This document shows positions 13,360-50,331 of a stretch of 64,000 bases of DNA, in pieces. Origin of the DNA: a virus; the IMG/VR virus record IMGVR_UViG_3300038701_002786, positions 15,101-79,100 of that record, one strand, 5' to 3'. Position 1 is the first letter of the stretch. Each line of letters opens with the position of its first letter. The notes beneath the pieces are model-generated. The model saw only the letters and a list, made by a program, of their open reading frames with translations. It did not search any database and was not told the origin of the DNA. The position numbers were made by a program, and so were the translations under genes.

Positions 13360-13378
13360 GCTGTAAACTGTTTACAGC
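13360..13378. promoter_or_regulatory. Palindrome motif A (GCTGTAAAC-T-GTTTACAGC)
   Basis: Perfect 9+1+9 inverted repeat in the gap upstream of the 13348 start. Confidence 0.75.
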
Positions 13379-13386
13379 TTCTCTTG

Positions 13387-14331
13387 TTAACTAAAGTTTA
13401 GATTTACGACACAAGGGTCCAAAATCACGGGCTCTTTACATTCAACAGACATCTGCTCCGGCAAAGGAACCGATGGCAATTTGGTTCCAATTGGTTGACG
13501 TAACAACTCGGTCAATACATGTTCACATGCCTGCAAAACATCACGCCAAACCGCTCTTTCGACTGCATCAGTTGTTAGCACAGGATCATATGCGGTCCAT
13601 TCAGCGACACCAATGTTGTCCATTTTCCAGAAACCTAAAACTACAGGGTACGGAGTCGTTGGTCGCGATAGTTCCGCGCACACCCCAAAACTACTTGATA
13701 CAGCAGAATTACCGTGATGATCGCGACCCTCAACAACCAAGTTTAAGACGAACGCCTCAGCGGCCTGTTCATGTTCAATGACATAACGCCGGTGTGCAGC
13801 AATTGGCGCTCCGTGGAGCACGCCATTACCACCAAGGGTCTGATGGTAAAAACCGACGTTATATTGGCTAATGTGATCCCACTTTAAAAAGTCAATATCT
13901 TTGCCCTGTCGCCAACAATACTGAGCTGCGCGTATCAACATGGAAACATCTGAAAACCAACAAAACAACCGGGTCAAAACAACCAACGCATCAAAACGGT
14001 CCAGCACATGCCAGTGGGCACACTCGCGGGGCAAGGCATTGTCCTGGTGTGTGTAACTCGTTATATGACATGGTATTCTTGGTTCATTAGCGCACAATTC
14101 AAAAGACAGACAAAAACCCCAATAGCCGATACCACCAATATGAATAATCTCTTCAACAACCAGTGAATCTGCAACATACGGGAAGCATTTATCCAAAAAC
14201 CAATCCCAATCGTCGAGTTCAAAGTTGCACTGACACAACACCGCAGACAAACTTTGTACGGTCTTCAACTTGTTGTTCGCATTGGCCCAACTACGGACCT
14301 CTGCCATCAAATGTAGTTTGGCTAAACTCAT
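13387..14331 (-). CDS. Hypothetical protein
   Basis: Long co-oriented ORF; start MSLAK overlaps the upstream stop. Confidence 0.6.
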   Translation of the reverse strand: MSLAKLHLMAEVRSWANANNKLKTVQSLSAVLCQCNFELDDWDWFLDKCFPYVADSLVVEEIIHIGGIGYWGFCLSFELCANEPRIPCHITSYTHQDNALPRECAHWHVLDRFDALVVLTRLFCWFSDVSMLIRAAQYCWRQGKDIDFLKWDHISQYNVGFYHQTLGGNGVLHGAPIAAHRRYVIEHEQAAEAFVLNLVVEGRDHHGNSAVSSSFGVCAELSRPTTPYPVVLGFWKMDNIGVAEWTAYDPVLTTDAVERAVWRDVLQACEHVLTELLRQPIGTKLPSVPLPEQMSVECKEPVILDPCVVNLNFS

Positions 14332-14582
14332 TCTGTTTTCGCTGAGCGAGAGCTCACAACAAACGAAACGGTGAAGTCCCAATTAATTTCAATTGGCTGA
14401 AAACAAGAATCGCAGGTCGTCTTCAGTGAACATGTATTGTAGCGCAACACATCCTCCAAGCACTCCGTAATGTGGCCGCAATGCGGACACATGAACATAT
14501 CGTCAGACGACGTTGCACCATCTTCTTGGATGTGCACGTCGTGTGTTTTGGCAATCGCTTCTAATTCAATCTTCGTTTTCAT
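14328..14582 (-). CDS. Zinc-ribbon protein
   Basis: CPHC...CDSC. Confidence 0.55.
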   Translation of the reverse strand: MKTKIELEAIAKTHDVHIQEDGATSSDDMFMCPHCGHITECLEDVLRYNTCSLKTTCDSCFQPIEINWDFTVSFVVSSRSAKTE

Positions 14583-14683
14583 GAACACATCCACCAATAT
14601 AAGGAACACACCAGTTCCTGAGACACAAGTAAGACACCAAAGACTTCCAATACAGAATGAAACTCAGTCAAAACAAACATTAC

Positions 14684-15277
14684 TCACCATGAACTTGAGC
14701 AGATATAAAGCCAAATAGCGCCGCAACGAGCCACTTGAAATGCACAAGGGACAGATTGTCTTGTCAACGCATCGATCGAACTGAATTCAACAACTTCATC
14801 TGGAGTAAGTTGATAGACCTCATCAGAATATTCGACATCCGCCATATACCCAATAGATGAATCAAGACACATGCGCGCCATTGTTTCATTTTCGGCCCAC
14901 ACCCAATGATATTCGCCATCATCGAAACGGTAAATGTTTAGAGCTCTGGTCAAGCGTCGATATTCATTTCTCGAATGTTGTTCGCGTTGGGTCAACTTGA
15001 TCAGTTCGGTCAATAATGCGTCACGTATTTGCACCTGAGACATAGCCTCGGACAACCCGCCTACGTGGCCATCAACCATATCCAACTCTCCACCATTACC
15101 CTGAGCCAACGATAATTGGCCATCTTGTGTACTGGAGGGTTTAGATATTTCAGCAATGGGATGTTCATTTTCTTTTGCGACACCAACTGCATCAATTCGC
15201 GCCTGCAAACGTTCAACAAACGCCGTCAAGCTCATGAAAATCAACATACACACCGTGAAAAGCATAAATTCACTCAT
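14684..15277 (-). CDS. Hypothetical protein with N-terminal membrane anchor and C-terminal 'IYRxDDGxYHWVWA' domain
   Basis: Paralogous to 11533-12090. Confidence 0.65.
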   Translation of the reverse strand: MSEFMLFTVCMLIFMSLTAFVERLQARIDAVGVAKENEHPIAEISKPSSTQDGQLSLAQGNGGELDMVDGHVGGLSEAMSQVQIRDALLTELIKLTQREQHSRNEYRRLTRALNIYRFDDGEYHWVWAENETMARMCLDSSIGYMADVEYSDEVYQLTPDEVVEFSSIDALTRQSVPCAFQVARCGAIWLYICSSSW

Positions 15278-15963: not shown

Positions 15964-16023
15964 GGTTGGACCCTCTTTGTTGAATCCATTTGCATAGAAT
16001 GTTCAGTTACTTTACAGAATTAT

Positions 16024-16056
16024 TGTTATCGGCTGTTATGTTATCGGCTGTTATGT
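16024..16056. repeat. 15-bp tandem duplication (TGTTATCGGCTGTTA x2.2)
   Basis: Read directly from the sequence; begins at the stop of 16051-16620. Confidence 0.9.
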
Positions 16057-16620
16057 CTTGGCGAGTTTTCCGCCAGGACAAAGGGTTTTGCTCAACAGAA
16101 ACAAAACCTGTTCGAACTTTTGATTGATGTTGTCATTGGGATTGACACCATTTGCTCTCAGTACTGCATCGAAACGCCTACCAAATTGCAGAAAACCATT
16201 CCGAGCAATCAATGCACGTTGCAACGTCTGGCGCACCAGTCTGAAGTCCGATTGCGTCGTCCAGCCCAAATCCTTGTACAGCAATTTCAATTGATGACAG
16301 GCCTCTTCGTACTGCGTCTTTGATGCAGCAATATCTCGACATGCCTGTGTGAATTGAGTTGAATCAGTCGATTCTGGCAAACCCAACGCTCGAAGTGACT
16401 CAATCCAAACCTGTTGAATATCACCATGTCGAATGACAGATGATTCCATCCGGAAATACTTGTCATTTAACTCAACAGATCGAATTTTCAGTGCAACCGT
16501 CTCCGCGCCTTGCCTGGAGAGCAAGACCAACCCCTGCTCGAAGCCTTGGACTTCGTAAACAAAGTCTGTGCGTCTGCTTCGATAGATATCACCGATTGAA
16601 ATATCAGTCATCACATTCAC
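16051..16620 (-). CDS. Hypothetical protein (SH3/KOW-like N-terminus, coiled coil)
   Basis: IGDIYRS...YEV N-terminus; GGAG SD favours the ATG at 16611. Confidence 0.55.
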   Translation of the reverse strand: MNVMTDISIGDIYRSRRTDFVYEVQGFEQGLVLLSRQGAETVALKIRSVELNDKYFRMESSVIRHGDIQQVWIESLRALGLPESTDSTQFTQACRDIAASKTQYEEACHQLKLLYKDLGWTTQSDFRLVRQTLQRALIARNGFLQFGRRFDAVLRANGVNPNDNINQKFEQVLFLLSKTLCPGGKLAKT

Positions 16621-16625
16621 TCCGC

Positions 16626-16646
16626 AGGTGTAAACAGTTTACACCT
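16626..16646. promoter_or_regulatory. Palindrome motif A (AGGTGTAAAC-A-GTTTACACCT)
   Basis: Perfect 10+1+10 inverted repeat between the promoter and the SD. Confidence 0.85.
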
Positions 16647-16662
16647 AGTTTGTTTTGTATAA

Positions 16663-16695
16663 AATGAGTCTACATTTAAGACTCATTGTTTTCAA
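16663..16695 (-). promoter_or_regulatory. sigma70-like promoter TTGAAA-17-TAGACT with embedded motif B operator
   Basis: -35 at 16695-16690, -10 at 16672-16667; AATGAGTCT-ACATTTA-AGACTCATT at 16663-16687. Confidence 0.8.
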
Positions 16696-20961: not shown

Positions 20962-21002
20962 TTGATGACAATGAGTCTATATATAAAACTCATTGTCATC
21001 AA
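20962..21002 (-). promoter_or_regulatory. sigma70-like promoter TTGATG-17-TAGACT with extended motif B operator
   Basis: 15-bp perfect arms TTGATGACAATGAGT / ACTCATTGTCATCAA; -35 at 21002-20997, -10 at 20979-20974. Confidence 0.8.
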
Positions 21003-21142: not shown

Positions 21143-23746
21143 TCAACCACATCCAGTACTTGCCCCACAATCATGGCACAAATAACAGGAACCGCTGGGA
21201 TAGGCCTGGCCACCACAGTTGGAGCACGACTGCATCGGCATCCCCACCTTTGCGGCAATAGTTCCCAAATTCGACACCTCCCGATGGGTGATGATACCAT
21301 CGGCTTTGTCGCCATCTCCCTTGGCGGTCAAAAAGGTGTTTTCAAGCCACTGAGCTACGAAATCAACAATTGAGGTGCAACTCTTGATCTCGCTATCCAC
21401 AATAAACCCTGAAGGCTCAAAGCGCTGAAACCGAGACTTTTCAACGATTGTTTGCAGTGGAACGCCATACTGCAACGCCAGCGAAACCATCTGGGACCAT
21501 TGATCCGCAAAACCTGATATCATGCTGCCTTGCTTCGAGAGCGTGATAAAGATCTCACCAGGAGTACCATCTTCATACAAACCAACATGGATGTAGCCCT
21601 CATGACCTTGAATATCAAACTTTTTCCGTATCGATCTTGTTTGGTTAGGTAACTTGCGTCTTGTTGGCACTTGCTCCCAAACAAGAGATATCACAGCCCC
21701 AGCGGCTCCTTTGATGTTGTCGAGTTCCTTTTTGACAACAGATTCGCCACCTTGATCTTCAAACTCCTCTAAGAGTTCCAGAGGCTGAGAGCCTTTGGAC
21801 CCATTCCGATACAGCGCAAGGCACTTGATGCCACTTTCCCAGGCATATAAAATGGCTTCTTTGATGTCTGCACGAGTAGCTGTTGTGGGCATGTTGATGG
21901 TTTTGCTGATTGCGCCTGAAACGAACGGTTGAAGTGCTGCCATCATATCAATATGGGCACGCCAACTTAAACAACGCTCTGACCCGAATGATGTATCAAA
22001 CACACTCAGATGCTCTTCAGATAAATACGGAGCCCCAACAACATGACCATGTTGCAACACGTAGCCAGCAATTGCCTCACGTTCGTCTTCGGGATACCCC
22101 AAGGCTTCCAGCCCCTTTTCAAAGACATGACACACGATCTTCTCATGGCCACCACCAACGAGTGTTTTCATTGTCACCAAACCGAGAGCAGGTTCGGCAC
22201 CTGTTGTATCACAATCCATCATGAAACTAATCGTGCCAGTCGGCGCGATAACCGTCATCTGCGCATTGCGAAGCATTGGATCTTGTTGATAGTCACCCAA
22301 AACTGCCACCCATGTCTTATGCAACAAATCTTGAGAATTCAACGCCTCAGACACCTCAAAGTGCTGTGACAGGATTCTTTCAACGTGTCCGCTGTTGTTT
22401 TGATAAGCGCCAAAAGAGCCAAGTTCTTTAGCCAAGTCATACGATGTGCTATATGCAAAACAGTGTATGTACGACATGAGTTTTTGGCCAAGACATCTTC
22501 CCTGTTCGCTGTCATATGGAACGCCCATCGACATCAACAGCGCTCCTAGGTTTGTCATACCCAGCCCAATTGTCCGATAACGTTTAGTTGTTTTGCCGAT
22601 TTGTTCCGTTGGATAATCAGCCATATCAACCAAAATATCTTGCATCACAAAAATATCGCGCACCTGACTATACAATTGCATACCATTTTCATACGTACCA
22701 TTGTCCAACAAATTACGCCAAAATATGGCATTCAAACTGGCCAGATTACATGCAGTATTGTTCAAAAAGAGGTATTCACTGCAGGGGTTCGAGGCATCAA
22801 TGTTACCGTCGGAAGCGCAGGTGTGCCATCGATTGATCGTGTCAGTAAATTGGACTCCAGGGTCACCACAAACCCAACACGCATCGGCGACCTCATCAAG
22901 CAAATATTGTGACTCCATCTGTTTATCCGTATATCGGATTGAGTGGTTGGCATTCTGAAAGTTGATCGAGTCGTATGCAGAATGCTCTTCAACAAATGAG
23001 TTCGAATACCCCTGACGCATCAACGCTTGGGCTTTCTTTTCCTCGATAGCTTTGCATTCGATAAATTCTTTGGCATCAGGATGCGAGGCGTCCAGGCAAA
23101 CCATTTTGGCGGCTCGACGTTTTTTGCCGCCACTTTTGATGGCGCCAGCGCTTGCATCAAATGCTCGCATGAACGAAACCACACCACTGGCACACCCACC
23201 ACCTGAGATGGGCGCTCCCTTGTGCCTGATATTGGACAGGTTGACCCCTGCACCACTGCCTTGCTTAAAGATAAACATCTCATCTCGTTGCAATTGACAG
23301 ATCGACTCCAGCGAATCTTCGACTTCATTGATAAAGCAAGCCGATGCTTGCTGAACCTTTTCCGGCGTCCCAATGTTAAACCAAACAGGTGAGTTAAACG
23401 CCCATTTTTGCTCCAACAGCGAACGAATCGTGCGCTCTCGAAACGACACACCATTCCTTTCCTCAAAGAACGATTGATACCCATTGGCACTGCCGTATTC
23501 CATGATCGCGTCGATGACCCGTTCAAAAACCTGGACGATGCTGTGTTCGCGCTCTTCTGTCTCCAACTGACCCCAAAAATATCGGGAGGCACAAATATTG
23601 ACAGCACGCTGGGACCAAGATGCGGGAAACAGCACGTCATCTTGTTCAAACGTGATTTGGCCAGTGGTATGATCTTTGATTTCCGCTCGGCGCAGTGCCA
23701 TTGGCACACCATAGGCGGTTTCCACTTGAATTGTGTCGATGCCCAT
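21143..23746 (-). CDS. nrdJ: Class II (adenosylcobalamin-dependent) ribonucleotide reductase with C-terminal TSCPD domain
   Basis: FNSPVWFN, SACF, KSGGKKRRAAKM, SNPCSE, CNLASLN, APTGTISF, ISKTIN, C-terminal CxxC zinc ribbon. Confidence 0.93.
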   Translation of the reverse strand: MGIDTIQVETAYGVPMALRRAEIKDHTTGQITFEQDDVLFPASWSQRAVNICASRYFWGQLETEEREHSIVQVFERVIDAIMEYGSANGYQSFFEERNGVSFRERTIRSLLEQKWAFNSPVWFNIGTPEKVQQASACFINEVEDSLESICQLQRDEMFIFKQGSGAGVNLSNIRHKGAPISGGGCASGVVSFMRAFDASAGAIKSGGKKRRAAKMVCLDASHPDAKEFIECKAIEEKKAQALMRQGYSNSFVEEHSAYDSINFQNANHSIRYTDKQMESQYLLDEVADACWVCGDPGVQFTDTINRWHTCASDGNIDASNPCSEYLFLNNTACNLASLNAIFWRNLLDNGTYENGMQLYSQVRDIFVMQDILVDMADYPTEQIGKTTKRYRTIGLGMTNLGALLMSMGVPYDSEQGRCLGQKLMSYIHCFAYSTSYDLAKELGSFGAYQNNSGHVERILSQHFEVSEALNSQDLLHKTWVAVLGDYQQDPMLRNAQMTVIAPTGTISFMMDCDTTGAEPALGLVTMKTLVGGGHEKIVCHVFEKGLEALGYPEDEREAIAGYVLQHGHVVGAPYLSEEHLSVFDTSFGSERCLSWRAHIDMMAALQPFVSGAISKTINMPTTATRADIKEAILYAWESGIKCLALYRNGSKGSQPLELLEEFEDQGGESVVKKELDNIKGAAGAVISLVWEQVPTRRKLPNQTRSIRKKFDIQGHEGYIHVGLYEDGTPGEIFITLSKQGSMISGFADQWSQMVSLALQYGVPLQTIVEKSRFQRFEPSGFIVDSEIKSCTSIVDFVAQWLENTFLTAKGDGDKADGIITHREVSNLGTIAAKVGMPMQSCSNCGGQAYPSGSCYLCHDCGASTGCG

Positions 23747-23764: not shown

Positions 23765-23782
23765 AGGTGTAAACAGTTTACA
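23765..23782. promoter_or_regulatory. Palindrome motif A (AGGTGTAAAC-A-GTTTACA)
   Basis: Core TGTAAAC-A-GTTTACA just upstream of the nrdJ SD. Confidence 0.75.
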
Positions 23783-23842: not shown

Positions 23843-23867
23843 TATGATTCCACATTTGAGACTCATT
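23843..23867. promoter_or_regulatory. Motif B operator (degenerate copy)
   Basis: TATGATTCC-ACATTTG-AGACTCATT, overlapping the stop of the DUF5131 gene. Confidence 0.6.
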
Positions 23868-24988: not shown

Positions 24989-25114
24989 CGGAAAATGATC
25001 TAAGATGTAAATATGTTCAGTATATATAAGCATGCAAGCAATGAAAACGAAATGAACTTTGAACAATTCATATGATTCGTGCCATGCTATGCACACTCAA
25101 CGGAGATATTATCC

Positions 25115-25402
25115 ATGGATTGGAACGCTCAAATTGAACCATTGACCCACGTGGAACGTCAAACAATCATTGATGCCATTCTTGCTTTTTGTCGCGCACA
25201 CAATTTGACTGATGCAGCAATAGCTCAAGCTGTTGACCTGTCAAAAGCGTCGATCTCAACGGCGAGAAACAGCAAGAAGCCCTCGCAAACGACGATCATT
25301 AAACTGTGTCAATTGTTCGAAATACGGTTTGCCTCCACTGTGGCGTGGTATCGCTGGTACGAAGCATACAAGGACGTTATTGGAACCGAGCCTGAATTAT
25401 GA
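25115..25402 (+). CDS. XRE/Cro-family HTH transcriptional regulator
   Basis: TDAAIAQAVDLSKASISTARN...PSQTTIIKLCQLF; first gene right of the divergent promoters. Confidence 0.75.
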   Translation: MDWNAQIEPLTHVERQTIIDAILAFCRAHNLTDAAIAQAVDLSKASISTARNSKKPSQTTIIKLCQLFEIRFASTVAWYRWYEAYKDVIGTEPEL

Positions 25403-26196
25403 CCAAAGAAGCTATTGTAATCACCATTGCCACTCAAAAGGGCGGGGTTGGCAAAACTACCGCAGCTGTCAATATTGCACACGGTTTTGTGCTCCAAGGC
25501 AAGTCAGTGTTGTTGGTTGACCTCGACAGTCAGGGCAACGCTACATTCTATTACGGAGTCGATGACCACAGGCATGGGAAAGACCTCCATGAGGCAATTA
25601 TTTGGGAGGAATTGGGTTTTGAAGATGAACCGCCACCAACATCACCAAGGATCGTCCAAACTGATTTTGGCGTCGACATCATGCCTGGTGGTGCATTTCT
25701 TGCCAAAACAGAAGCCCACCTGCATTCAATGCAATTTAACGCCCAGCAACTCGATCTGATTATCGAAAGAGAGTCGTTGCGCGAAAAATATGATTACATC
25801 ATCTTCGATACAGCTCCATCACTCGGGCCAATGACTTTCAATGCCTTTGTAGCCTCTGACCGCGTGATCATCGCGATCAATTGCGATGCCGCCAGTATCC
25901 TCGGGATGAAGCAAACCATGCGAACGATGAAGAGGGCCAAAGATGCAATGAATCAAAGCCTGAGTCTCTGGGGGATTTTACCCTCCGAATATGACGTGAG
26001 GAACAATCTGGATGTGCAAATCCTGGAGCAAGTACAAGCCTCATACCCCAACCACGTGTTGCCCCTGATCAGAAAAAACATTAAGGTGAGAGAATCTGTA
26101 TCGTTCCAAATGCCTGTTGTGGCCTATGACAAGAATTGTTCTGGCGCGCAGGACTATACAGCCCTTACCAAACATCTGCACGACATGGAGCAATAA
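25399..26196 (+). CDS. parA: ParA-family partition ATPase
   Basis: QKGGVGKTT deviant Walker A, LVDLDSQGNAT, YDYIIFDTAPSLG. Confidence 0.93.
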   Translation: MTKEAIVITIATQKGGVGKTTAAVNIAHGFVLQGKSVLLVDLDSQGNATFYYGVDDHRHGKDLHEAIIWEELGFEDEPPPTSPRIVQTDFGVDIMPGGAFLAKTEAHLHSMQFNAQQLDLIIERESLREKYDYIIFDTAPSLGPMTFNAFVASDRVIIAINCDAASILGMKQTMRTMKRAKDAMNQSLSLWGILPSEYDVRNNLDVQILEQVQASYPNHVLPLIRKNIKVRESVSFQMPVVAYDKNCSGAQDYTALTKHLHDMEQ

Positions 26197-27405
26197 ATGG
26201 CGACACGCAAAATTCGTAAAGCCACCCCTGACAACTTCGTTTCCTCAACTGAGGAGACGGATGAAGTTTTTGACGCGATCACTGGCACACCCAAAGGCGA
26301 AGTGTTCAAGGAAGAACCTCTCGCACTGCACACATTAACTATGAGCAGCTTAACCCAACCCCGTGTACAGTTGCGACAGGATGTTATTGATGATTACGCT
26401 GGCAAGATGCACAAAGAACGAGGGCGTACAGGTTGGGTGATTAACCCAATGACGAAGAAACGATGGGAACCGATCGTTGTGTTCACCGATGGCGACAGTT
26501 TCTGGCTGGCTGATGGATACCATCGAGTTAAAGCAGCTCAAAAACGTGGCCTGCAATTGTTCCAAGCCAAATTCAGAAAAGGAACCAAATTTGATGCTTT
26601 TAAATTTTCATTGAGCGTCAATGAAAACCACGGGCTCAAAAGGTCAAAGGGCGATCAAGCGCATATTGCCCGCAAAGCATTGCTCGACCCACATCTGCGT
26701 CGGCTCTCCAGCAGAGAATTGGGCGACCTCACGTTGATGTCGCACACCTATATTTTAAAAATCAAAAAACAAATGATCGCCGATGGACTCATTCCTGACG
26801 ATGAGACTGTCAAGGGTGGAGACGGCAAAATTTACCCTGCAACAGTCCCCCAGGAACCGACACAGCCAATGGTGCGCAAAGCCGGTAGCAAAGAACTCCC
26901 TGGGGCAACTGAAGAACCCAGGGTGCAAAAGATTGATAGTTCTGGGGGCGATGAAGGCATCGTTGAAGTAAACGTCGAAGAACAGGAAATCGAGTCGACA
27001 AGAACATGGCGCGAAGAACTGGAGACTGTTGCTGATAATATCATCAGTTTTGATGAAGCCGATGATACGCACTGGGCGGTTGAATGCGCAATTGTCGTAC
27101 CGAAAGAAGATAAACAATGGTCCTGGGCGATCGAACATGGCACCAAACTGGAAGGGGCAGATGCGATTTTGCTCATTCCCATGCCACCAAGTCATCTGTT
27201 GTTGGATTTCATGTTGCGTGTAGATCGAGAACAACGAATGAACAACGCGTACAGCCATGTCCATTATTGTATCGTGGGACGCGAAAGTTGGCTGGTGTTG
27301 TCCAAGACAGATATAGACGGCGCCAAGTTTTATGCAGATTTTGATGATCTATTGGCTGCCGTGGGGATAGCGGCCTATCGAACTGTGGAGATAAGAACGA
27401 AATGA
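26197..27405 (+). CDS. ParB/Srx N-terminal domain protein with HTH
   Basis: PIVV..LADGYHRVKAA..N..HG..R; directly follows parA. Confidence 0.75.
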   Translation: MATRKIRKATPDNFVSSTEETDEVFDAITGTPKGEVFKEEPLALHTLTMSSLTQPRVQLRQDVIDDYAGKMHKERGRTGWVINPMTKKRWEPIVVFTDGDSFWLADGYHRVKAAQKRGLQLFQAKFRKGTKFDAFKFSLSVNENHGLKRSKGDQAHIARKALLDPHLRRLSSRELGDLTLMSHTYILKIKKQMIADGLIPDDETVKGGDGKIYPATVPQEPTQPMVRKAGSKELPGATEEPRVQKIDSSGGDEGIVEVNVEEQEIESTRTWREELETVADNIISFDEADDTHWAVECAIVVPKEDKQWSWAIEHGTKLEGADAILLIPMPPSHLLLDFMLRVDREQRMNNAYSHVHYCIVGRESWLVLSKTDIDGAKFYADFDDLLAAVGIAAYRTVEIRTK

Positions 27406-27848
27406 TGGAGATATTCATGGATGACAAGAAAAAAGAATCGCCATTGGGAGTTGGTTATGCTTCCAATGACGATTCCGGTAAAACCTACGTTTTGCGTGCC
27501 TCAGACGATATCCTAAAGCAATGGTATCGTCAAGTTATAACTGATCTGAGCCTAAGTGGGCATGCGGGCCGGATTTTGATCGCATGGAGCGTAGTTTCAA
27601 TGCACGATGATGGTACGATAAGACCAATACATCCCGATTTTTATGACAACTTCAATAAAAACGGGGAGTTAACACAGCCCGGTGCAATCAACATAACAAA
27701 GAGCACCTACTACAATTATCTCAAAGAAGCCCGAGACTCAAAACACGTTCGGAAAATTGGCGAATTCGATGTAGAGTTGTCTCGCTTTGATCAGAAGACC
27801 GACACTAAATCATATGATATCTACGAATTGGTTTTGTTCGGCGAATAG
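27402..27848 (+). CDS. Hypothetical protein (possible winged helix)
   Basis: Co-oriented ORF with overlapping junctions. Confidence 0.55.
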   Translation: MMEIFMDDKKKESPLGVGYASNDDSGKTYVLRASDDILKQWYRQVITDLSLSGHAGRILIAWSVVSMHDDGTIRPIHPDFYDNFNKNGELTQPGAINITKSTYYNYLKEARDSKHVRKIGEFDVELSRFDQKTDTKSYDIYELVLFGE

Positions 27849-29465: not shown

Positions 29466-31057
29466 TGGAACCAATGGAATTGAGCTTTAAAGATCTGACA
29501 ACGCAACTCCTTGATAAAACCAAATATTCAAAACAACGCCCGGCATCGTTGGAGGCGGAAATTCGTCTCATCACGTGTTGTTTGGCGGATAACATTCGAT
29601 ACGATTCATTGTCTGGCCGCATCCGCGCGGAGCATTTTTATTATGTCGGTTTGCGCCACGTGTGGGATGCAATTGGCGAATTGTTGTCGGGCATGGAATT
29701 GAACATACGAGACAATGACACCCGCCAGGACATCAGCCCGTTTATGCTCAAGGGGCATTTGAAGAAGATGGGGCGTTGGCAATTTATCGAGTTGGAACTT
29801 CAAGAGTATGAAATTGTTTCCTCTGTTGAGGATATCTTCAACTACGACAAGGACGGTGAGCCGACTCATTACGCTAAAATGATTGTTGAGTGTTGGCGCC
29901 TTCGCACCCTGAATGAGTGCGCTGAACTGATGTCTCGAATGATCGCGGAGGGGCGAGATAGCAAAGATGTAGCAAGGGTCATGGGCAATGCAATGACATT
30001 AACATCCAAAAACCAAGCAGGGGACGATGCAGCTTCGCCAGCAATGGTGGCCGCAATAACAAAGAAGGAAATTTACGATGAGCTTGATGGTGATGGCTAC
30101 AGTATCTGCGTTGAGATGCAACAAACAGTTCTGAACGCAGCGTTCTGTGGTGCGTTAAGATTTCGCGAGTGTTCCATGTGTTGCGGTTTGACTGGCCATG
30201 GCAAGACTTCTACAGCGCTTGCGGTTATTCAGGAAGCGTCTCGGATTGGGGCTATGACTTTGATGTTCTTCGCTGAAGGGTCTATCCGAGATATGGTCAT
30301 TCGATCGTTGGTCGCGCGGTTTAGCCACCGTGATGAAAATCGGCAACTTCGTCGGGAGTATCCGTTGCTGAATCCAAAATGGCTAGAGAGTCCAAGTTTG
30401 GTGCCGGAGCGACATCGACCTGCGTTTAAAGAACAATTGGACCGAGCGCTGGATTGGTATGCTGAAGAGTCCGGCTTGTATCTCAAACAGGACATCAATC
30501 TCGTTGCTGAAGATATTCAACGATATATTCAGATGCGACGAGCGATGGAGCCCAAGCGTCCGATGGTGGTCATTGTTGACTATGCTCAATATTGTTCAGT
30601 TGAAGACCCATTCGTTCGTGGCGAAACCGAAAACATCTCTGGTGCGGTGAAGCTTCTTAGCGCATGCGCAGCCAATTACGATTGTGCCATGATCATCTTG
30701 GCCCAACACAATGAAGTTGATGACCAGATGCCCTATGCGTGTCCCCGCCCCAATGATGTTCGGCAGAGCAAAGACCTGCATAAGGTGCCAGCTAACTTTA
30801 CGACGGTACACAAACCCTACGATGGTCATAGTTCGTCGCACCTGAACTCATTGGTGGTCTTTGACGTGGGTAAAAATCGCAAGGGGAAGCAGTATTATGT
30901 GATGGCGACGATCGATTACGAGACAGGGGCGTATGGGTGGTTTGATGGCGAATTGGATGCACAGGATATTGCCAAGATCGGATTGCAACATCGAAAACGC
31001 CTGTACTCTCACAACTGGCGTGAGTTTATCAATGGGCCACCAGAGCAGGACTCATGA
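29465..31057 (+). CDS. DnaB-like replicative helicase (divergent)
   Basis: GLTGHGKTS Walker A, FFAEG, VIVDYAQ, ILAQ, DVRQSKDL, VGKNRKG. Confidence 0.85.
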   Translation: MEPMELSFKDLTTQLLDKTKYSKQRPASLEAEIRLITCCLADNIRYDSLSGRIRAEHFYYVGLRHVWDAIGELLSGMELNIRDNDTRQDISPFMLKGHLKKMGRWQFIELELQEYEIVSSVEDIFNYDKDGEPTHYAKMIVECWRLRTLNECAELMSRMIAEGRDSKDVARVMGNAMTLTSKNQAGDDAASPAMVAAITKKEIYDELDGDGYSICVEMQQTVLNAAFCGALRFRECSMCCGLTGHGKTSTALAVIQEASRIGAMTLMFFAEGSIRDMVIRSLVARFSHRDENRQLRREYPLLNPKWLESPSLVPERHRPAFKEQLDRALDWYAEESGLYLKQDINLVAEDIQRYIQMRRAMEPKRPMVVIVDYAQYCSVEDPFVRGETENISGAVKLLSACAANYDCAMIILAQHNEVDDQMPYACPRPNDVRQSKDLHKVPANFTTVHKPYDGHSSSHLNSLVVFDVGKNRKGKQYYVMATIDYETGAYGWFDGELDAQDIAKIGLQHRKRLYSHNWREFINGPPEQDS

Positions 31058-32244: not shown

Positions 32245-32257
32245 ACTGTTTACACCT
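32237..32257. promoter_or_regulatory. Palindrome motif A (AGGTGTAAAC-T-GTTTACACCT)
   Basis: Perfect inverted repeat overlapping the primase stop codon. Confidence 0.85.
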
Positions 32258-32309: not shown

Positions 32310-32334
32310 CATGAGTTTACATTTGAGACTCATA
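32310..32334. promoter_or_regulatory. Motif B operator
   Basis: CATGAGTTT-ACATTTG-AGACTCATA just upstream of the Dda-like helicase start. Confidence 0.7.
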
Positions 32335-37884: not shown

Positions 37885-38310
37885 ATGTGGTTTGAATGTA
37901 CAGATGCGTGGGGGAACCCGCTGAAGTGTGAAACAACTCCAGATAGGGCGGTCTTTCTCCAGTTGTTGTGGGAAGATATTTACGATCAGCGCGTAGGTTT
38001 TGATGATTTTGTCGACCAAGCACTTGGAGATATGAATCCATGGCTGGGTGGTGGAGAGATCAGCGGACTGGAGCGAAGTCATCCAGCCATGGATGTGGTC
38101 ATGGGCATGGTGGAACATAAGTTGATGCGGACTCAGCAACGTTTGGCTGGCCAGGCTATTTATGATGTGACGTTGGCTGATGCTGGTAGACATTTGGGTG
38201 TTAGTCCGCAGCTCGTTCTTCAATACATCAAAAGGGGCAAACTTGATGGGATGAAAACCTATTGGGGATGGCGAGTTTCAGCCAAGGCGTTGGGGACCGA
38301 AAGAAAATAG
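37885..38310 (+). CDS. Excisionase-like HTH (HTH_17-type) protein
   Basis: VTLADAGRHLGVSPQLVLQYIKRGKLDG.K...WRV. Confidence 0.7.
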   Translation: MWFECTDAWGNPLKCETTPDRAVFLQLLWEDIYDQRVGFDDFVDQALGDMNPWLGGGEISGLERSHPAMDVVMGMVEHKLMRTQQRLAGQAIYDVTLADAGRHLGVSPQLVLQYIKRGKLDGMKTYWGWRVSAKALGTERK

Positions 38311-38330: not shown

Positions 38331-38363
38331 TGGCAATGAATGAGTCTTAAATGTAAACTCATT
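38331..38363 (+). promoter_or_regulatory. sigma70-like promoter TGGCAA-17-TAAACT with embedded motif B
   Basis: AATGAGTCT-TAAATGT-AAACTCATT at 38339-38363. Confidence 0.65.
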
Positions 38364-39290: not shown

Positions 39291-39319
39291 CCCTAATGAG
39301 TCTTAAATGTAGACTCATT
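39287..39319 (+). promoter_or_regulatory. sigma70-like promoter TTGACC-17-TAGACT with embedded motif B
   Basis: 39295-39319 is the exact reverse complement of 16663-16687. Confidence 0.8.
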
Positions 39320-43116: not shown

Positions 43117-44318
43117 TTTAACTTGTTTCCCATTTTAAGTTTTGACGAATTTTGTCTTTTTTTAATTTCTATTGCAAATCGAAGAGTGTGAGCGCTAACC
43201 AAGTCGGCGCGGATATTCGCCTGTGAGTTTGGGTCGCCGTTGAAAGTGAGTTGGGAGTTGTTGACGCTCCGTTTGATTGAAATAATGTGTGCGTGTGTTT
43301 TCGATTGATTATAGATTCTTGTTGCTATCGAGCCTGCTGAGATTTTGCCATTCAGGTTGTTAAGATTTGTTTGGTAGTCAGGCTCCTTTGGTTGATTTTG
43401 TTCACGTTCGTGAATCTCCAAAATCATCAATGCAGTGACCCAGCCAACCACAACCACAAAGGCAATTGTCATTGAAGTGCCCCGATGTTGTTTAGGCACC
43501 ACGATCGGCTTTATCTCTGTTGGTTTCTCAAGCGAATTGAGCAATTGCTTTGAGTTGGCTGCTCGTTCAAAGAGAACTTTTTTCAGCATTAAATTAATGG
43601 CGGATTCTAATTGAGGGTCATGGAGATTAACCTCAAGGGATGGTCCATTGTAGAGATTTGACAGAAATCGCTTGGCCACTGAGTTTTTATGCATCTCCAA
43701 TGTGGCGCCTTTGCACAGCCAGTAGCAAACCATGCCCAGGCTATACAAATCTGATTGGTGCGTGAGCTTGGTTGGGTCGATGTGTTCAGGGGATGAGCAG
43801 TCCAAGGTGCCCAGTGTTGTTTCATCGGTCGTCAACGGTTGTTGATTTCGCCCCCAAGAAGAAGAGCCAAAATCAATAAGAACGGGCCGCGTGATGTTGT
43901 TATCGCTGAGCATGATATTGCCGAGGGATATGTCACGGTGCAAAACCCCATGTTCCTTCAAGGACTGGAGCACCCCGAGCATTGATGTCAAAAAAGATTT
44001 CAGTTGAAGTTCTGTAATCACGTTACCGGATTCAAGCCATTCCCATACACTACAGCCTTCAACGTAATTCGTTACAATGTGTAGTTTGTCGTCTTTATGG
44101 ATAACATCCATAAACCGCAGCATTTGTCCGTTGAGACCTTGTAGTTTTGACAACACCTCAATTTCGCGTTTGGCACGAGCCCGTTTCGTTTCGTTTGAAT
44201 TGAAGTCAATTGTTTTTATAGCAACCAGACGACCTTCATCGTCTGATGCTCGCCAGATTTCACCGTTGGCGCCATGACCGATGCTTTCGTGTATCATGTA
44301 TGGACCAAGGCGATTCAT
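43062..44318 (-). CDS. Hanks-type Ser/Thr protein kinase with transmembrane helix
   Basis: IGHGANGEIW, VAIK, HRDISLGN, DFG, GT..SPE, SDLYSLG; TM IAFVVVVGWVTALMIL. Confidence 0.9.
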   Translation of the reverse strand: MNRLGPYMIHESIGHGANGEIWRASDDEGRLVAIKTIDFNSNETKRARAKREIEVLSKLQGLNGQMLRFMDVIHKDDKLHIVTNYVEGCSVWEWLESGNVITELQLKSFLTSMLGVLQSLKEHGVLHRDISLGNIMLSDNNITRPVLIDFGSSSWGRNQQPLTTDETTLGTLDCSSPEHIDPTKLTHQSDLYSLGMVCYWLCKGATLEMHKNSVAKRFLSNLYNGPSLEVNLHDPQLESAINLMLKKVLFERAANSKQLLNSLEKPTEIKPIVVPKQHRGTSMTIAFVVVVGWVTALMILEIHEREQNQPKEPDYQTNLNNLNGKISAGSIATRIYNQSKTHAHIISIKRSVNNSQLTFNGDPNSQANIRADLVSAHTLRFAIEIKKRQNSSKLKMGNKLKWNNTKSKTEAYDGSSPL

Positions 44319-44674
44319 CGCTGCACTCGTCGCCTTGTAATGGGAGCACCTGATTCGGCCATGTAAGATAAGGCTCCACCATAGTACAGAGTAGTGCGCC
44401 TGACTCCGAATAGAGGAGCCAGTTGGTCCAGCAACTTTATGTCGTCGAGTTCGACATAAAAGTGCATGTAGTTATCAAAGATGCTTTCGATCCCTTCTTT
44501 TGTTGAAAAAGGATGCCAGTATTCGTCTTCAACCTTTTGGTTGATGTGAGCAATTACTTCTTTCGAGAACTGTTTAGAGTCGTCACCGAAGTGTTTGCTT
44601 ATGTAGTCATCGAGTTGTTGTTGTTCGTTTGGTGGGACTTTGATTTTAAGGGACGATGAGTATGATTTTCCCAT
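44315..44674 (-). CDS. Putative tandem ribbon-helix-helix DNA-binding protein
   Basis: Two alternating-hydrophobic strand + helix units (SLKIKVPPNEQQQLDDYI; MHFYVELDDIKLLDQLA). Confidence 0.5.
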   Translation of the reverse strand: MGKSYSSSLKIKVPPNEQQQLDDYISKHFGDDSKQFSKEVIAHINQKVEDEYWHPFSTKEGIESIFDNYMHFYVELDDIKLLDQLAPLFGVRRTTLYYGGALSYMAESGAPITRRRVQR

Positions 44675-44738
44675 GATGTGGTCCTTTGAGTTCGATTGTG
44701 CAAGTTGATCTGTTTATGACGGATCGACGCAATATTTG

Positions 44739-44843: not shown

Positions 44844-44870
44844 CCTAATCAATCGCACAGGAGACCGTCA

Positions 44871-45971
44871 ATGAAAGTGACCGCGCAAAATATGTTTGAA
44901 GCGTTAACACGTGTTCAACACGCCATTTTTCACAAAAATGGGCGCGTCCTTTTGTTTGAACAGAATGGGCAAACCTTTGTATTTGCAAGCAATAATGATT
45001 GGAACGCAAAGTGCTTTGCTCAGGTGTTGACCCCTGTACAAGCATACGCCGAAGAGGGGGAGTGTTATGTTGTGCCAGCTGGGGACTTCAGGGCAACTAT
45101 CAAGATGATTGAGGGCGAAGTCGAACTCAGTGGGAACGGGCCGCATGTTGAGGTGAGTCACGGGCAGGGGACTCATTTTCGGTTTTTGGGTCTCGCTGAA
45201 GAAAGCAGACTTTTGGTTGATTCCTCGAAGAGCATGATTCGGGTTGATGAGCCAATTGCTTCTTTGAAGATGGATGGTGAGAACTTCGTTAAGTCATTGA
45301 AGTTGGCATCAGTTCGTGCTCAAGACGCCGATTTTCCTGTGCAAATCCTATCCAAAAATTCAGCCATTCGTTTTTGTGGTTTAACACGACGACAGGTGTC
45401 AATTGTTTACACCACTGGTCAGGTAGACGGTGTCATTCGTATTCCTCAAACATATTTGAGGGCTATTGAATCGTTTGTTGATACAAGCAAACAAGTTTCC
45501 GTGGTGATGTCAGAATCATACGTCAAAATCACACAAGAACAGTCAGTTTTAACGATTGGGGTCGAGGCAGACCCATTCCCTCAAGTTGAACAAGTGCTCA
45601 GCGCTTTGGAGCGCAATTCAGTATCTTGTCTTGTTCGCAAAGTTGAGGCGGTCAGAGCATTGGAACTTATCCGTCAAGGCGTGCCCCCCAAGATACCAGC
45701 GTTCAAAATTGGTTTTGATGGTGAAGAGCTTCGCCTGGTCGCACCGGATTTGAACGGCAGAATTGTGGTTGAAACACCTCTAAGTTGTACCAACCTCATT
45801 GGCAGTGTCCAATGGTCTACGATGAGATTGCAGCAACCTTTTGTTGCTAATGCGCTCAAAAACATACCAACCAGCAACGTTAAGTTGTTGTTTCCAGATA
45901 ATAAATTAGAGCCTTTGATTATTCAATCCGACGATGGGCTTGTTAGTCAGATCGTCGCACCGATGAGATGA
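44871..45971 (+). CDS. Divergent DNA polymerase III beta sliding-clamp-like protein
   Basis: 366 aa; FPQVEQVL resembles the clamp (Y/F)PxYxxVI motif; C-terminal PLII...IVAPMR. Confidence 0.62.
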   Translation: MKVTAQNMFEALTRVQHAIFHKNGRVLLFEQNGQTFVFASNNDWNAKCFAQVLTPVQAYAEEGECYVVPAGDFRATIKMIEGEVELSGNGPHVEVSHGQGTHFRFLGLAEESRLLVDSSKSMIRVDEPIASLKMDGENFVKSLKLASVRAQDADFPVQILSKNSAIRFCGLTRRQVSIVYTTGQVDGVIRIPQTYLRAIESFVDTSKQVSVVMSESYVKITQEQSVLTIGVEADPFPQVEQVLSALERNSVSCLVRKVEAVRALELIRQGVPPKIPAFKIGFDGEELRLVAPDLNGRIVVETPLSCTNLIGSVQWSTMRLQQPFVANALKNIPTSNVKLLFPDNKLEPLIIQSDDGLVSQIVAPMR

Positions 45972-45975
45972 ATTT

Positions 45976-47833: not shown

Positions 47834-48024
47834 AGCAACTCGAACCTGAGACGCTCAAAGCAATTGCGATAATTCGTTGGATAACACGCCCAGGCCAACT
47901 GACTTATCGTGGCGTTCGCATTTATCGATGGCATGGCTTCACCTACGGGGTGTGGCACAATAGGACTATGCGAACTTACAGCACTTTTTACGGCGCACGT
48001 TGTGCCATAGATGGAATATCGTGA
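47830..48024 (+). CDS. Hypothetical protein
   Basis: GTGA overlaps. Confidence 0.4.
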   Translation: MKQLEPETLKAIAIIRWITRPGQLTYRGVRIYRWHGFTYGVWHNRTMRTYSTFYGARCAIDGIS

Positions 48025-48452
48025 AGAATTTGGATGAAAAAGAAGTGATCGAAAGCGCAAAGCGTTGCGCAAAGCGATATGAGCACGCCAAACTTGGTGA
48101 TTCGACGTGTCCGCATCCCAAGTTGTTGCCCATGGTCTTGCTTAAAGCGAAACAAGAATGTTTTGAAGCGGCCCGAAATCTTGAGTCATTGACATGGGAA
48201 TGCCTTGAAACCGTTCGGAAGTTGCAAAACCAAGATAACGAGCGTTTGTTGAAGGCTGAACGTGATTCGTTGAAAAATGCAGCAATCCGATATTTTGACC
48301 GAGCAAAGCGGTATCGTGCAGTCTTGGAGGGCCAGGTGTTGCCGGTCTTGGGGATTGAAGTGATTCGATACAAATGGCCCAAGATTCGCGTTCAAAACGT
48401 GTTGACGGCCAAAATCCCAAACAAATCCATGAACAATCAATACAGGATTTGA
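48021..48452 (+). CDS. Hypothetical coiled-coil protein
   Basis: Co-oriented; start overlaps the upstream stop. Confidence 0.55.
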   Translation: MKNLDEKEVIESAKRCAKRYEHAKLGDSTCPHPKLLPMVLLKAKQECFEAARNLESLTWECLETVRKLQNQDNERLLKAERDSLKNAAIRYFDRAKRYRAVLEGQVLPVLGIEVIRYKWPKIRVQNVLTAKIPNKSMNNQYRI

Positions 48453-48454
48453 AA

Positions 48455-49093
48455 ATGGAACGCGTAGTTATTGAGTCGCCCTTTGGCAGCGATGATGATG
48501 AGATCATTCGGCGAAATATTTTGTATGCTCGTCTTTGTCTAAATACAGTGTTGCACAAAGGACATGCTTGTTTTGCCTCGCACCTATTGTTCACCCAGCG
48601 ATTGGTTCTTAATGACAATGTGCCAGAGGAGCGTGCGTTGGGTATCACTGCAGGACTTGAGGTTGTACGTGATTTTGAGGCGACTTATGTGTTCTCCGAT
48701 TTTGGTGTTACACCAGGTATGCAAGAAGGCATTGATGCTGCTCATCAGTGCGGTCGAAGGGTTGAAGAGTATCGTTTGTTCCAAGTAGACTGTGCCCATG
48801 TCAAAACAGCTGAAGAACTCTGGCAGATGGTCAAGATTTACTATGATGATGCTGAACTCTGGCACGATATGCTCTTTGACGAAAAAGATGACATGTTGTT
48901 GGCAATGGAACGAGTAGAGCGCAATGCCCAAATTGCATACCGATGGGTAGTTGGTCTTTGTGTGCCCCTCTTTGTCGGCGCATGTAATTTCGTGGACCAG
49001 GGGTACATAATCGCTTGGGTTCTTGTTGGTTGGACTGTCTTTTTGTTTTGGGCATTTGTTTTCAAAATTATCGATTTGCGAGAAGGGGTTTGA
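48455..49093 (+). CDS. Nucleoside-deoxyribosyltransferase-like (DUF4406/DUF7768-type) domain plus C-terminal membrane helices
   Basis: VVIESPF...NILYAR...FASHLLFTQ.L.D..P.ER.LG...G...GM..GI. Confidence 0.6.
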   Translation: MERVVIESPFGSDDDEIIRRNILYARLCLNTVLHKGHACFASHLLFTQRLVLNDNVPEERALGITAGLEVVRDFEATYVFSDFGVTPGMQEGIDAAHQCGRRVEEYRLFQVDCAHVKTAEELWQMVKIYYDDAELWHDMLFDEKDDMLLAMERVERNAQIAYRWVVGLCVPLFVGACNFVDQGYIIAWVLVGWTVFLFWAFVFKIIDLREGV

Positions 49094-49094
49094 A

Positions 49095-50318
49095 GTGAGT
49101 GTGCAAGAAATCAGTATCTCCAAATTGACGCTCGATCCTGAGCGCCAAATGCGCGTCCACGGATGCCGTCGACTTGTTGTTAAGAAATATGCGGATGCTC
49201 TTGAGCAAGGCGCTGAGTTTCCTCCAATTATTGTTGTGAAGATCGACAAAGAGTTTGTTGTGTGTGATGGATTTCATCGCATATCAGCGCACGAATCATT
49301 GGGTCTTAAAAAGATCAAGGCGTCCATTGAAGAGGGCGACGAAGTGTTGGCCATGGAGCGTTCATTTGCTGCAAATGGTGCTCATGGCGAGTCCAGGTCG
49401 AAAGAAGATGAAGAGATGGCGTTGATGAAGATGATTGCGCACCCCGTCATTGGCCAGCGCTCATTGCGCGATCTGGGCAAACTCGTTGGGTTGAGCCACA
49501 CCAAAGTTAGCCAAGTCAGAAGGCAGATGGAAGCATCGGGCCTGATTGAGCCCAAAATACAAACGTTGGGCAAAGACAATAAAATGTATCCTGTTAAAAG
49601 CGTGAATGCCCCCGCGGAGGATGTCAACGATTTGGTTGAAGTTGAACGCCCTCAATTTGCTACTGCAATGCCGCCTGACCAACAGGAGAGAAACACACAC
49701 ACAACAAACATTTTACTCTCAAGCAAAAGCAATGAGTGGTATTCGGGCGATGAGCGTTTGTTGAAGGTTTTACATGGCTTCTTTAAGGATGGGATCGACC
49801 TCGACCCAGCCAGTTGCGCATACGCCAATGAAACCTTCATCAAAGCAGCGCGTTTTTACAGCGAAGAAGATGATGGATTGAGCCAACCATGGGACGCTGA
49901 GCGACTTTGGTGCAACCCACCGTATGGTTTGGATGACGAACATCAATCCAATATGGGCAAGTGGTCGTCGCGTTGGTTGGATTCAGTTGGGAACATTGGA
50001 GAGAGCGTAGAAGACATCCTGGATGCAGGGATGTTTGTTGAGGGTTTACTCCTTGTGAATGCTTTTGTGGGTGCCAAGTGGTTTGAGCGACTTTGGAGTG
50101 AGGCATTCATTTGTTTCCCCAACTTTCGCCTCAAACATAAAAAGGCGCCTTGGATGAAGCAAAAGGACCAACCATCACACTTCAGTGCCATTTCTTATGT
50201 TGGCCCTCGATATGATGAATTCAAACGCGCTTTTTCCGTACTTGGTCGAATTGTGCCCCCTTCTGAGACCTTTTGTGGCCATTCAATCAATCACGAATTG
50301 ATACTTGAAAAGGTGTAA
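49095..50318 (+). CDS. ParB-N/HTH fused to phage DNA N6-adenine methyltransferase
   Basis: N-terminal VCDGFHRISA; C-terminal SNEWY, IDLDPAS, LWCNPPYG. Confidence 0.85.
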   Translation: MSVQEISISKLTLDPERQMRVHGCRRLVVKKYADALEQGAEFPPIIVVKIDKEFVVCDGFHRISAHESLGLKKIKASIEEGDEVLAMERSFAANGAHGESRSKEDEEMALMKMIAHPVIGQRSLRDLGKLVGLSHTKVSQVRRQMEASGLIEPKIQTLGKDNKMYPVKSVNAPAEDVNDLVEVERPQFATAMPPDQQERNTHTTNILLSSKSNEWYSGDERLLKVLHGFFKDGIDLDPASCAYANETFIKAARFYSEEDDGLSQPWDAERLWCNPPYGLDDEHQSNMGKWSSRWLDSVGNIGESVEDILDAGMFVEGLLLVNAFVGAKWFERLWSEAFICFPNFRLKHKKAPWMKQKDQPSHFSAISYVGPRYDEFKRAFSVLGRIVPPSETFCGHSINHELILEKV

Positions 50319-50331
50319 ACTGTTTACACCT
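50311..50331. promoter_or_regulatory. Palindrome motif A (AGGTGTAAAC-T-GTTTACACCT)
   Basis: Perfect inverted repeat overlapping the MTase stop codon, upstream of recU. Confidence 0.85.

Follow-up and report, generated by a model that had tools for sequence, protein, structure and literature searches.

In a 64-kb stretch of phage DNA taken from the IMG/VR record IMGVR_UViG_3300038701_002786, hereafter the window (bases 15101-79100 of the 81,498-bp record, whose CheckV completeness is 64%), a short palindrome termed motif A, TGTAAAC-N-GTTTACA (TGTAAACNGTTTACA), recurs in gaps between genes. These palindromes are probably the sites of the phage's own ParB-like protein, encoded at 26197-27405, with partition as their main role. 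All three elements of this proposal, that is the binding by the ParB-like protein, the partition and the silencing of neighboring genes, we infer from sequence comparison. A preliminary description of this DNA had considered motif A as parS-like sites for the ParA/ParB pair encoded at 25399-27405, and this view gains comparative support from the palindromes linked to homologous genes and from the higher number of copies in those members of the family that have a ParA.

Motif A sites in the phage genome

Exactly five copies of motif A are found in the window, at 13362, 16629, 23768, 32240 and 50314, none in 100 dinucleotide-preserving shuffles of the same sequence, and no copy beyond the same five in the full viral record. 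The sites span about 37 kb, on both sides of parAB, and all of them occupy short gaps between same-strand genes, that is, exclusively non-coding junctions. Four sites end 13-23 nt 5′ of the next start codon, and the distance is 47-78 nt at site 4, depending on the true start. The same 21-mer, AGGTGTAAAC-W-GTTTACACCT, is found at sites 2, 4 and 5. Specifically, site 1 (13360-13378) reads GCTGTAAAC-T-GTTTACAGC, with 9-bp arms, and lies 13 nt before the ATG in a 38-nt gap between the minus-strand genes 13387-14382 and 12830-13348. Site 2 (16626-16646), a perfect 21-mer, is located in the 5′ leader of the minus-strand gene 16051-16611, with a promoter of the type containing a second repeat, motif B (TTGAAA-N17-TAGACT), 16 bp upstream of the site. 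Site 3 (23765-23782) consists of the core with 7-bp arms plus AGG on one side only and is part of the 5′ leader of the gene for a class II ribonucleotide reductase (RNR; 21143-23746, minus strand), a motif-B-like promoter being present about 60 bp upstream. Site 4 (32237-32257), again a perfect 21-mer, shares bases with the TAA that ends the primase gene (31054-32244), is followed by a Dda-like helicase gene and has a motif B copy 52 bp downstream. Finally, the perfect 21-mer of site 5 (50311-50331) overlaps the TAA stop of a ParB-methyltransferase gene (49023-50318) and lies 21 nt before a RecU-like resolvase gene (50350-50937). In both cases of overlap the stop codon is read within GTG TAA (32242-32244 and 50316-50318). 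The genes directly downstream of sites 3, 4 and 5 thus encode the class II RNR, the Dda-like helicase and the RecU-like resolvase, and those downstream of sites 1 and 2 are of unknown function.

The five positions, the three identical-arm 21-mers, the placement in gaps upstream of genes, the two stop-codon overlaps and the three pairings with motif B had all been listed in the preliminary description, and the pattern scan of the window reproduced each of them, with the pairings (sites 2, 3 and 4) 16-60 bp apart; the motif scan with a shuffled control, which the description had proposed, is the comparison of five copies with none given above. No flanking repeats or target duplications are visible around the sites. 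A possible sixth, degenerate site, AGGTGTCAAT-T-GTTTACACC, is found at 45394-45413, inside the open reading frame (ORF) 44871-45971; one of its arms is perfect, the core has two mismatches and the GG..CC flanks are retained.

The ParA/ParB pair and a second candidate reader

The gene parA (25399-26196, plus strand) encodes a 265-aa Walker-type ParA ATPase, which matches the Pfam families AAA_31 (2e-41) and CbiA and a ParA-like PHROG (4e-51), and whose P-loop domain begins at residue 7. Its stop codon abuts the start of the parB-like gene (26197-27405, plus strand), an arrangement of translational coupling. The 402-aa product of the latter, the proposed reader of the A sites, is composed of three successive parts: a ParB/Srx N-domain that contains the motif DGYHR, a helix-turn-helix (HTH) whose recognition helix is SHTYILKIKK, and a C-terminal part of low confidence. 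No match to Pfam was found for this protein, which is recognized by a ParB-like PHROG (5.7e-8) and, at the profile level, by sulfiredoxin (1.5e-7), ParB (1e-6) and Spo0J (5e-5) in the PDB. In a structure model built from 29 homologues, pLDDT exceeds 90 at residues 40-200, the C-terminal third being poorly modelled, and helices 172-179 and 183-195 form an HTH directly after the N-domain. The top Foldseek matches of the model are ParB of Myxococcus, Bacillus and Caulobacter, followed by Noc, Spo0J and KorB, over about 170 columns of the N-domain and HTH. With its predicted N-terminal ParB/sulfiredoxin fold followed by an HTH, whose recognition helix is conserved across 80 homologues, the protein is assigned to the ParB superfamily. 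Matches to cyanobacterial plasmid proteins are weak (about 30% identity) and no similarity to SopB emerged in any search; by its sequence, the window ParB represents a divergent, little-studied branch of the ParB family.

A second candidate reader is the fusion of a ParB domain and HTH to a methyltransferase, encoded at 49023-50318 (plus strand), with the helix SHTKVSQVRR and A site 5 at its stop codon. In addition, an ORF of 148 aa (27402-27848) overlaps the stop of parB; it has no Pfam or PHROG match, and its location would suit a KorA-like partner of ParB.

A palindrome behind the recognition helix of ParB homologues

The alignment of ParB-like proteins retrieved 80 viral loci, of more than 553 matched in all, and the counts below cover these 80. 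In each locus, the codon corresponding to ParB residue 200, with which the recognition helix ends, was located in the alignment, and a segment of 600 bp starting 150 bp upstream of this codon was scored by its best odd palindrome with 10-nt arms, and 253 segments located 2.5-4 kb away were used as controls. The score was 10/10 in 17 loci and 9/10 in 14 (31 in total), against 0 and 12 of the 253 controls. When perfect palindromes with arms of at least 9 nt are counted, 24 fall in the 47 kb tested versus 20 in the other 1.1 Mb, a 28-fold enrichment. The left arm follows, before the central base, the consensus S-T-G-N-N-R-A-M (T in 24/24 and G in 19/24 unique cases), and the arm of motif A, (G/C)TGTAAAC, fits this consensus at every constrained position.

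These palindromes overlap linker codons, in which synonymous and non-synonymous positions co-vary and keep the DNA symmetric. For example, in the x-x-E-I-P-Q-x class the proline codon changes at its third position in step with the second position of its partner codon (GGG/CCC, GAG/CCT, GCG and TCG/CCG), and in another class two flanking residues vary in the pairs Q/C, L/N, G/P and A/A. In other words, the linker amino acids are dictated by the symmetry of the DNA, which suggests that selection, or at least maintenance, acts on DNA symmetry. Among the mismatches of the 8/10 and 9/10 palindromes, G:T wobbles are 1 of 32, with no excess, and this argues against an RNA stem. In one locus (L184:6480-6590) three palindromes about 50 bp apart are found just after the HTH codons of a single ParB-like gene. 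Two of them read GTGGAGTC-C-GACTCCAC and one GTGTAATC-C-GATTACAC; from these two spellings, the inner five bases may be read loosely.

Site number in the ParA-linked members of the family

A ParA homologue lies nearby in three of the 80 loci, namely this phage, a distant relative of it designated G005 and a third phage designated G006, and multiple sites are present in each: five in this phage, three plus two in G005, and a four-copy array with an embedded copy in G006. By comparison, the ParB-like gene contains or adjoins a palindrome in 29 loci. In 27 of these, ParA-less with one exception, a single copy is present within the fetched locus; the loci with more than one copy are the ParA-linked G005 and the ParA-less L218.

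The record of G005 (IMGVR_UViG_3300040801_005525, L143-L147) measures 82.8 kb, has a GC content of 62% (48% in the window phage) and contains the contig L066. About 20 of its proteins, among them ParA, ParB (35%) and the portal, capsid and tail proteins, have counterparts of 25-50% identity in this phage, and ParB is the only recognizable sequence-specific DNA binder common to the two. An A-like sequence, CTGTAAAY-N-RTTTACAG, is kept twice in G005, as GAACTGTAAAC-C-GTTTACAGTTC and as the symmetric variant ACTGTAAAT-G-ATTTACAGT. Each of these A-like sites lies upstream of a -35 element. A second palindrome, GAACTGAGCAT-W-ATGCTCAGTTC, is found at a distance of 15-25 bp from each of them and directly adjoins a conserved TTGACA-N17-TCGAAT promoter. 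The palindrome CTGAGCAT-W-ATGCTCAG is present in three copies, one inside parB and two at the conserved promoter beside the A-like sites (G005 sites at 67928, at 74484 and inside parB, L148:1162), and both palindromes of G005 have the outer GAACTG..CAGTTC in common. Since the two contig ends of G005 are bridged by its parA gene, this 82.8-kb record probably represents either a complete circle or a permuted genome.

G006 (L180/L228-L232) is a 30,312-bp viral contig with coupled parA-parB genes. About 3.4 kb from these genes, four exact CTCACTGTAATCCGATTACAGTGA sites are arranged in tandem repeats of about 80 bp (30119-30300 and 48-64) that span the contig ends, and a copy with one mismatch is embedded in parB. 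Judged by this arrangement, the predicted centromere of G006 has the classical layout. The basic N-terminal tail of ParB, MATRKIRK in this phage and MGATRKK in G005, is missing from the ParA-less L127 and L133 described below.

Recognition-helix residue and palindrome class

The palindromes of the family can be divided into a C class (..AC-S-GT.. or ..TC-S-GA..) and an A class (..GAA-A-TTC..), according to the base beside the center. Of 14 proteins with C beside the palindrome center, 13 have an aromatic residue (F or W) directly before the conserved V of their recognition helix, and all 12 proteins with A beside the center have T, L or M there. The window ParB has Y there (SHTYI) and motif A, ..AAC-W-GTT.., has C, so that protein and site fall in matching classes; the ParB-methyltransferase has K. 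According to a maximum-likelihood tree, each of the two traits has changed seven times or more, with the same direction in every independent pair, and in one case well-supported sisters differ in both, L170 having T with GGAA-A and L224 having F with TAAC-G. Because only three pairs lie on strongly supported branches, the tracking of palindrome class by this helix residue is to be considered suggestive.

Occurrence of the palindrome in other genomes

The 19-mer GGTGTAAAC-N-GTTTACACC was scanned through GTDB genomes and JGI metagenomes, in which 14 loci were found; no exact copy was found in other IMG/VR contigs. In a Kiritimatiellaeota metagenome-assembled genome (MAG; L127), in which it is present in single copy, and in two near-identical metagenome contigs (L131/L133), the palindrome has the longer form CAGGGTGTAAAC-S-GTTTACACCCTG and is part of a ParB-like gene, where it occupies the linker that directly follows the HTH. 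Its reading frame differs between the two genes (QGVNRLHP versus GCKRFTPC). The ParB-like proteins of L127 and L131/L133 are 36% identical to the window ParB over 115 residues (E about 1e-15) and also match the ParB-methyltransferase of the window.

Other occurrences have a different context. In the betaproteobacterial MAG contigs L123, L126 (=L136) and L134 the sequence is a 25-bp perfect palindrome, AACGGTGTAAAC-A-GTTTACACCGTT, with one copy per genome; the gene that follows encodes a 145-aa lysine/alanine-rich protein (MMSTDKPS...), and its neighborhood is of the usual chromosomal kind, with genes for a glycosyltransferase, a carboxypeptidase and an MCP. Three short, high-GC metagenome contigs, L129, L130 (two copies 864 bp apart) and L132, share a conserved non-coding module formed, in this order, by a hairpin-like GGATAGG...CCATCC stretch, CAGGGTGTAAAC-C-GTTTACACCCTG and GACCGGTCA; no ParB-like gene was detected on them. 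The 15-mer core is also multi-copy in the small-phage IMG/VR contigs L021, L049 and L068 (6.7-11.4 kb) and in L015. In the small phage of the first three contigs, 5-6 copies per contig of AAGTGTAAAC-W-GTTTACACTT precede terminase, portal and tail genes, within late-gene promoter-like modules (TTTACA-N19-TAAAAT) and with a GGCC-TAAAAT-like element about 19 nt after most copies, so that this unit looks like a late promoter or activator module. These contigs and L015 were considered as carriers of related sites and set aside, as they have no proteins in common with the window phage, and their 15-mer was accordingly treated as convergent use of a short dyad. As judged from these sequences, short dyads clearly recur by chance or convergence.

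Genome setting and motif B

The genes of the phage form two divergent arms, whose junction near 25 kb coincides with a switch of the GC skew. The right arm opens, in this order, with an XRE-type HTH gene, parA, the parB-like gene, the 148-aa ORF, a 517-aa ORF and genes for a DnaB helicase, a primase and the Dda-like helicase; no function could be assigned to the two ORFs that follow parB. Motif B, AATGAGTCT-N7-AGACTCATT, is present in six copies in the window (16663-16687, 20970-20994, about 23843-23867, 32310-32334, 38339-38363 and 39295-39319) and is embedded in sigma-70-like promoters such as TTGAAA-N17-TAGACT, the -10 box lying within its right arm. Motif-B promoters flank three A sites, at the distances given above but on either side. 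In particular, sites 2 and 3 are in leaders downstream of such promoters, site 4 is upstream of a motif B copy, and no promoter is found near sites 1 and 5, which are intercistronic. The copy at 32310-32334 has, relative to transcription, the opposite orientation to the others, and two copies hold centrally an exact A half-site, TGTAAAC, from which the canonical center TGTAGAC is one base off.

A near-identity DNA search of the region against GenBank phages and PLSDB plasmids gave no match. The terminase is at most 37% identical to that of any GenBank phage, and the closest relative of the helicase among 5.8 billion proteins has 39% identity, a search for loci related by the helicase having returned none. 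HIP1 (GCGATCGC), whose presence would hint at a cyanobacterial host, has 0 copies.

Alternative explanations

Each of the other explanations of motif A accounts for part of these observations. One is that a ParB-fold protein, either ParB itself or the ParB-methyltransferase, binds the sites for gene control or genome marking only, with no partition; the sites would be loading sites of the KorB or BisD type, silencing or timing the replication genes, or a guide for methylation. That most homologous loci (77 of 80) keep a cognate palindrome while lacking a nearby ParA speaks in favor of this, as do the position of all the sites within transcription units before DNA-metabolism genes, the three motif-B promoters beside them, the conserved promoter abutted by the G005 sites and, for the methyltransferase, the location of site 5 at its stop codon and the resemblance of its HTH to that of ParB. 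However, ParA is translationally coupled upstream of parB in this phage, in G005 and in G006, and it is in exactly these three that site number goes up; moreover, the geometry with respect to promoters is not conserved, and in the methyltransferase the helix position at which an aromatic residue goes with ..AC-N-GT.. is occupied by K. We consider control without partition unlikely. It is more doubtful still that motif A represents the operators of another regulator, such as the XRE (25079-25402), HTH (37885-38310) or ribbon-helix-helix (RHH; 44315-44674) proteins or one of the host, governing a DNA-metabolism regulon. Perfect dyads of 15-21 bp are indeed typical of dimeric repressors, the genes that follow the sites are related in function (RNR, helicase, resolvase), and the 19-mer upstream of a betaproteobacterial MAG gene and the 15-mer core in promoter-like modules of an unrelated small phage could be read in the same sense. 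Nevertheless, no homologue of the XRE, HTH and RHH regulators was detected in G005, which keeps A-like sites; in this phage the sites do not lie over promoter elements, and such a regulator would leave unexplained both the core embedded in ParB-like genes and the fit to the family consensus.

The preliminary description had also mentioned a hairpin acting at the RNA level, which would have a 9-bp stem and a 3-nt loop in the mRNA just 5′ of ribosome-binding sites and would affect stability, processing or translation. All five sites are transcribed, four of them end 0-8 nt before the Shine-Dalgarno (SD) sequence, site 1 differs from the 21-mer on both arms with pairing kept, and the hairpin is part of the minimum-energy fold at 4 of 5 sites. 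This alternative is weakened by the folding of the 66-nt contexts, whose energies are at the level of shuffles (z from -1.6 to +0.4), by an SD that is never sequestered and by the lack of a G:U bias in the family mismatches. Furthermore, the hairpin is absent from the best fold at site 3, no U-tract follows the sites, site 4 lies far from its start codon, the G005 sites are upstream of promoters, and the constant TG..CA points to sequence-specific reading. An RNA role is on these grounds improbable. Very improbable, lastly, is a neutral origin of the palindromes, as inverted repeats perfected by template-switch copying, which can produce perfect palindromes and mimic paired changes, or as a small mobile repeat: five copies of one sequence stand at separate non-coding junctions versus 0 expected, the core is kept in a relative of 62% GC versus 48% here, and a family-wide consensus is found at a fixed place in the gene, with no flanking repeats or target duplications. 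Two further candidates were rejected. A sigma-70 promoter with TTTACA as the -35 would occur at site 2 only, on the non-coding strand, the spacing being inconsistent elsewhere, and as intrinsic terminators the sites lack a U-tract and terminator-like matches are at chance level. To our knowledge, the spacing of motif A is unlike that of the motifs of the host regulators TyrR, HexR, NtcA, LexA variants, NrdR, PsrA and Zur.

A number of observations weigh against ParB sites that serve partition. As regards the family, ParA was not found nearby in 77 of the 80 homologue loci, from which it follows that partition is not its basic role, and the tree-aware sign test of the covariation between helix residue and palindrome, on the three strongly supported pairs, is not significant (p 0.25-0.5). 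The possibility that template-switch copying perfects palindromes and mimics paired changes tempers the argument from covariation as well. As regards the protein, at the aligned position of the canonical CTP box GERRxR the homologue alignment has DGYHR, and the ParA-contact motif LG(R/K)GL is not present in the ParB N-terminus; a clamp-type behavior of the protein is therefore uncertain. As regards the sites, an embedded palindrome was searched for in the parB and ParB-methyltransferase genes of the window and none was found, and the palindrome embedded in parB of G005 is CTGAGCAT-W-ATGCTCAG and not A-like, which makes the reader of the A-like sites of G005 ambiguous. Likewise, each of the three betaproteobacterial MAGs has a single 19-mer, located about 25 nt before a conserved chromosomal gene and with no ParB-like gene nearby. 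Finally, neither an integrase nor a protelomerase was found among the proteins scanned, and no evidence of a plasmid-prophage lifestyle was found in the 64%-complete record.

Proposed mechanism

In the proposed function of motif A as ParB sites, a dimer of ParB would read the two half-sites (G/C)TGTAAAC, and the sites occupied by ParB, together with the adjacent ParA ATPase, would form the scattered partition complex of an extrachromosomal prophage. Their dispersal, across some 37 kb surrounding parAB and the replication genes, is comparable to that of the sites in N15 and near the origins of chromosomes. As they lie inside transcription units, just ahead of replication and nucleotide-metabolism genes, ParB occupancy would probably also dampen the expression of these genes, as KorB and the SopB protein of N15 do. 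The roles of centromere and of KorB-like silencer may coexist, in analogy with RK2 and N15. In addition, the geometry of the sites relative to promoters is not fixed, since they are found in leaders and between cistrons in this phage and upstream of the -35 in G005, and this suits a position-independent loading site more than a classical operator.

A possible, and more tentative, extension concerns the whole family. Phage ParB-fold HTH proteins, a large family with mostly uncharacterized members, might carry their own recognition palindrome in the gene just behind the recognition helix, with reader and site moving and co-evolving as a cassette; the few lineages that recruited a ParA, this phage among them, might then have copied the site outward and multiplied it into a distributed centromere, which would double as a KorB-like brake on replication genes.

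Comparison with known systems

In the plasmid prophage N15, the centromere used by SopAB consists of four dispersed inverted repeats, IR1-IR4 (Ravin and Lane 1999, as cited in PMC7205306); when SopB occupies its sites, a promoter close by is silenced (PMC7205306). The analogy with N15, already drawn in the preliminary description, holds for the layout: in both phages a parA/parB-type operon is accompanied by a few single palindromes scattered over tens of kilobases of the genome (here five over 37 kb), with no single array. It does not extend to the proteins, as N15 has a type Ia SopA/SopB pair, with a long ParA bearing an N-terminal HTH, whereas this phage has a short ParA of 265 aa and a divergent, DGxHR-type ParB with no detectable similarity to SopB. 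Moreover, the palindrome of this phage is odd, with a single central base.

A parallel in the type of site is offered by KorB, whose OB site is a 13-bp odd palindrome with a central base, present at about a dozen dispersed sites. In common with KorB, the system described here has a ParB fold with an HTH, a ParA partner (IncC in RK2), an odd palindrome and dispersed sites; KorB is also among the structural matches of the ParB model (8qa8 and 8qa9), with about 16% identity over the structural alignment. In contrast, KorB has canonical CTP motifs and a clamp-locking KorA, whereas the CTP box is altered here and no KorA-like partner was identified in the Pfam and PHROG scans. The chromosomal ParB/Spo0J-parS systems resemble the one proposed here in a palindrome read by the HTH of a ParB dimer and in sites that cluster around the replication region, and differ from it by the presence of GERRxR and LG(R/K)GL. 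In Bacillus subtilis, where parS is an even 16-bp palindrome, one parS lies inside spo0J; a site inside the ParB gene is the rule in this phage ParB family. The KorB-OB network of the IncP plasmid RK2 combines partition and gene silencing (PMC11790492). Another ParB-like CTP clamp, BisD of ICEclc, is described as acting from bisS on distant promoters and as activating transfer genes (PMC12409273). BisD belongs to a mobile element and, although ParB-like, has no classical partition role, which appears to hold as well for most sampled members of the present family; this phage differs in having a ParA. A 2025 survey of ParB folds reports many phage ParB-like proteins and fusions without known DNA targets, and palindromes are not mentioned in it (PMC12704722).

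On the whole, the system adds to those of the ParABS and KorB type rather than founding a new kind. If ParB binds motif A, this phage would possess a compact ParABS system based on a non-canonical ParB, whose CTP box is replaced by DGxHR and whose site is an odd palindrome, and, if the proposal is true, it would represent a second, independent case of the scattered-centromere layout of N15. More generally, the comparative result yields a candidate specificity-determining residue of the recognition helix and predicted site-protein pairs for about 30 other phage ParB-like proteins.

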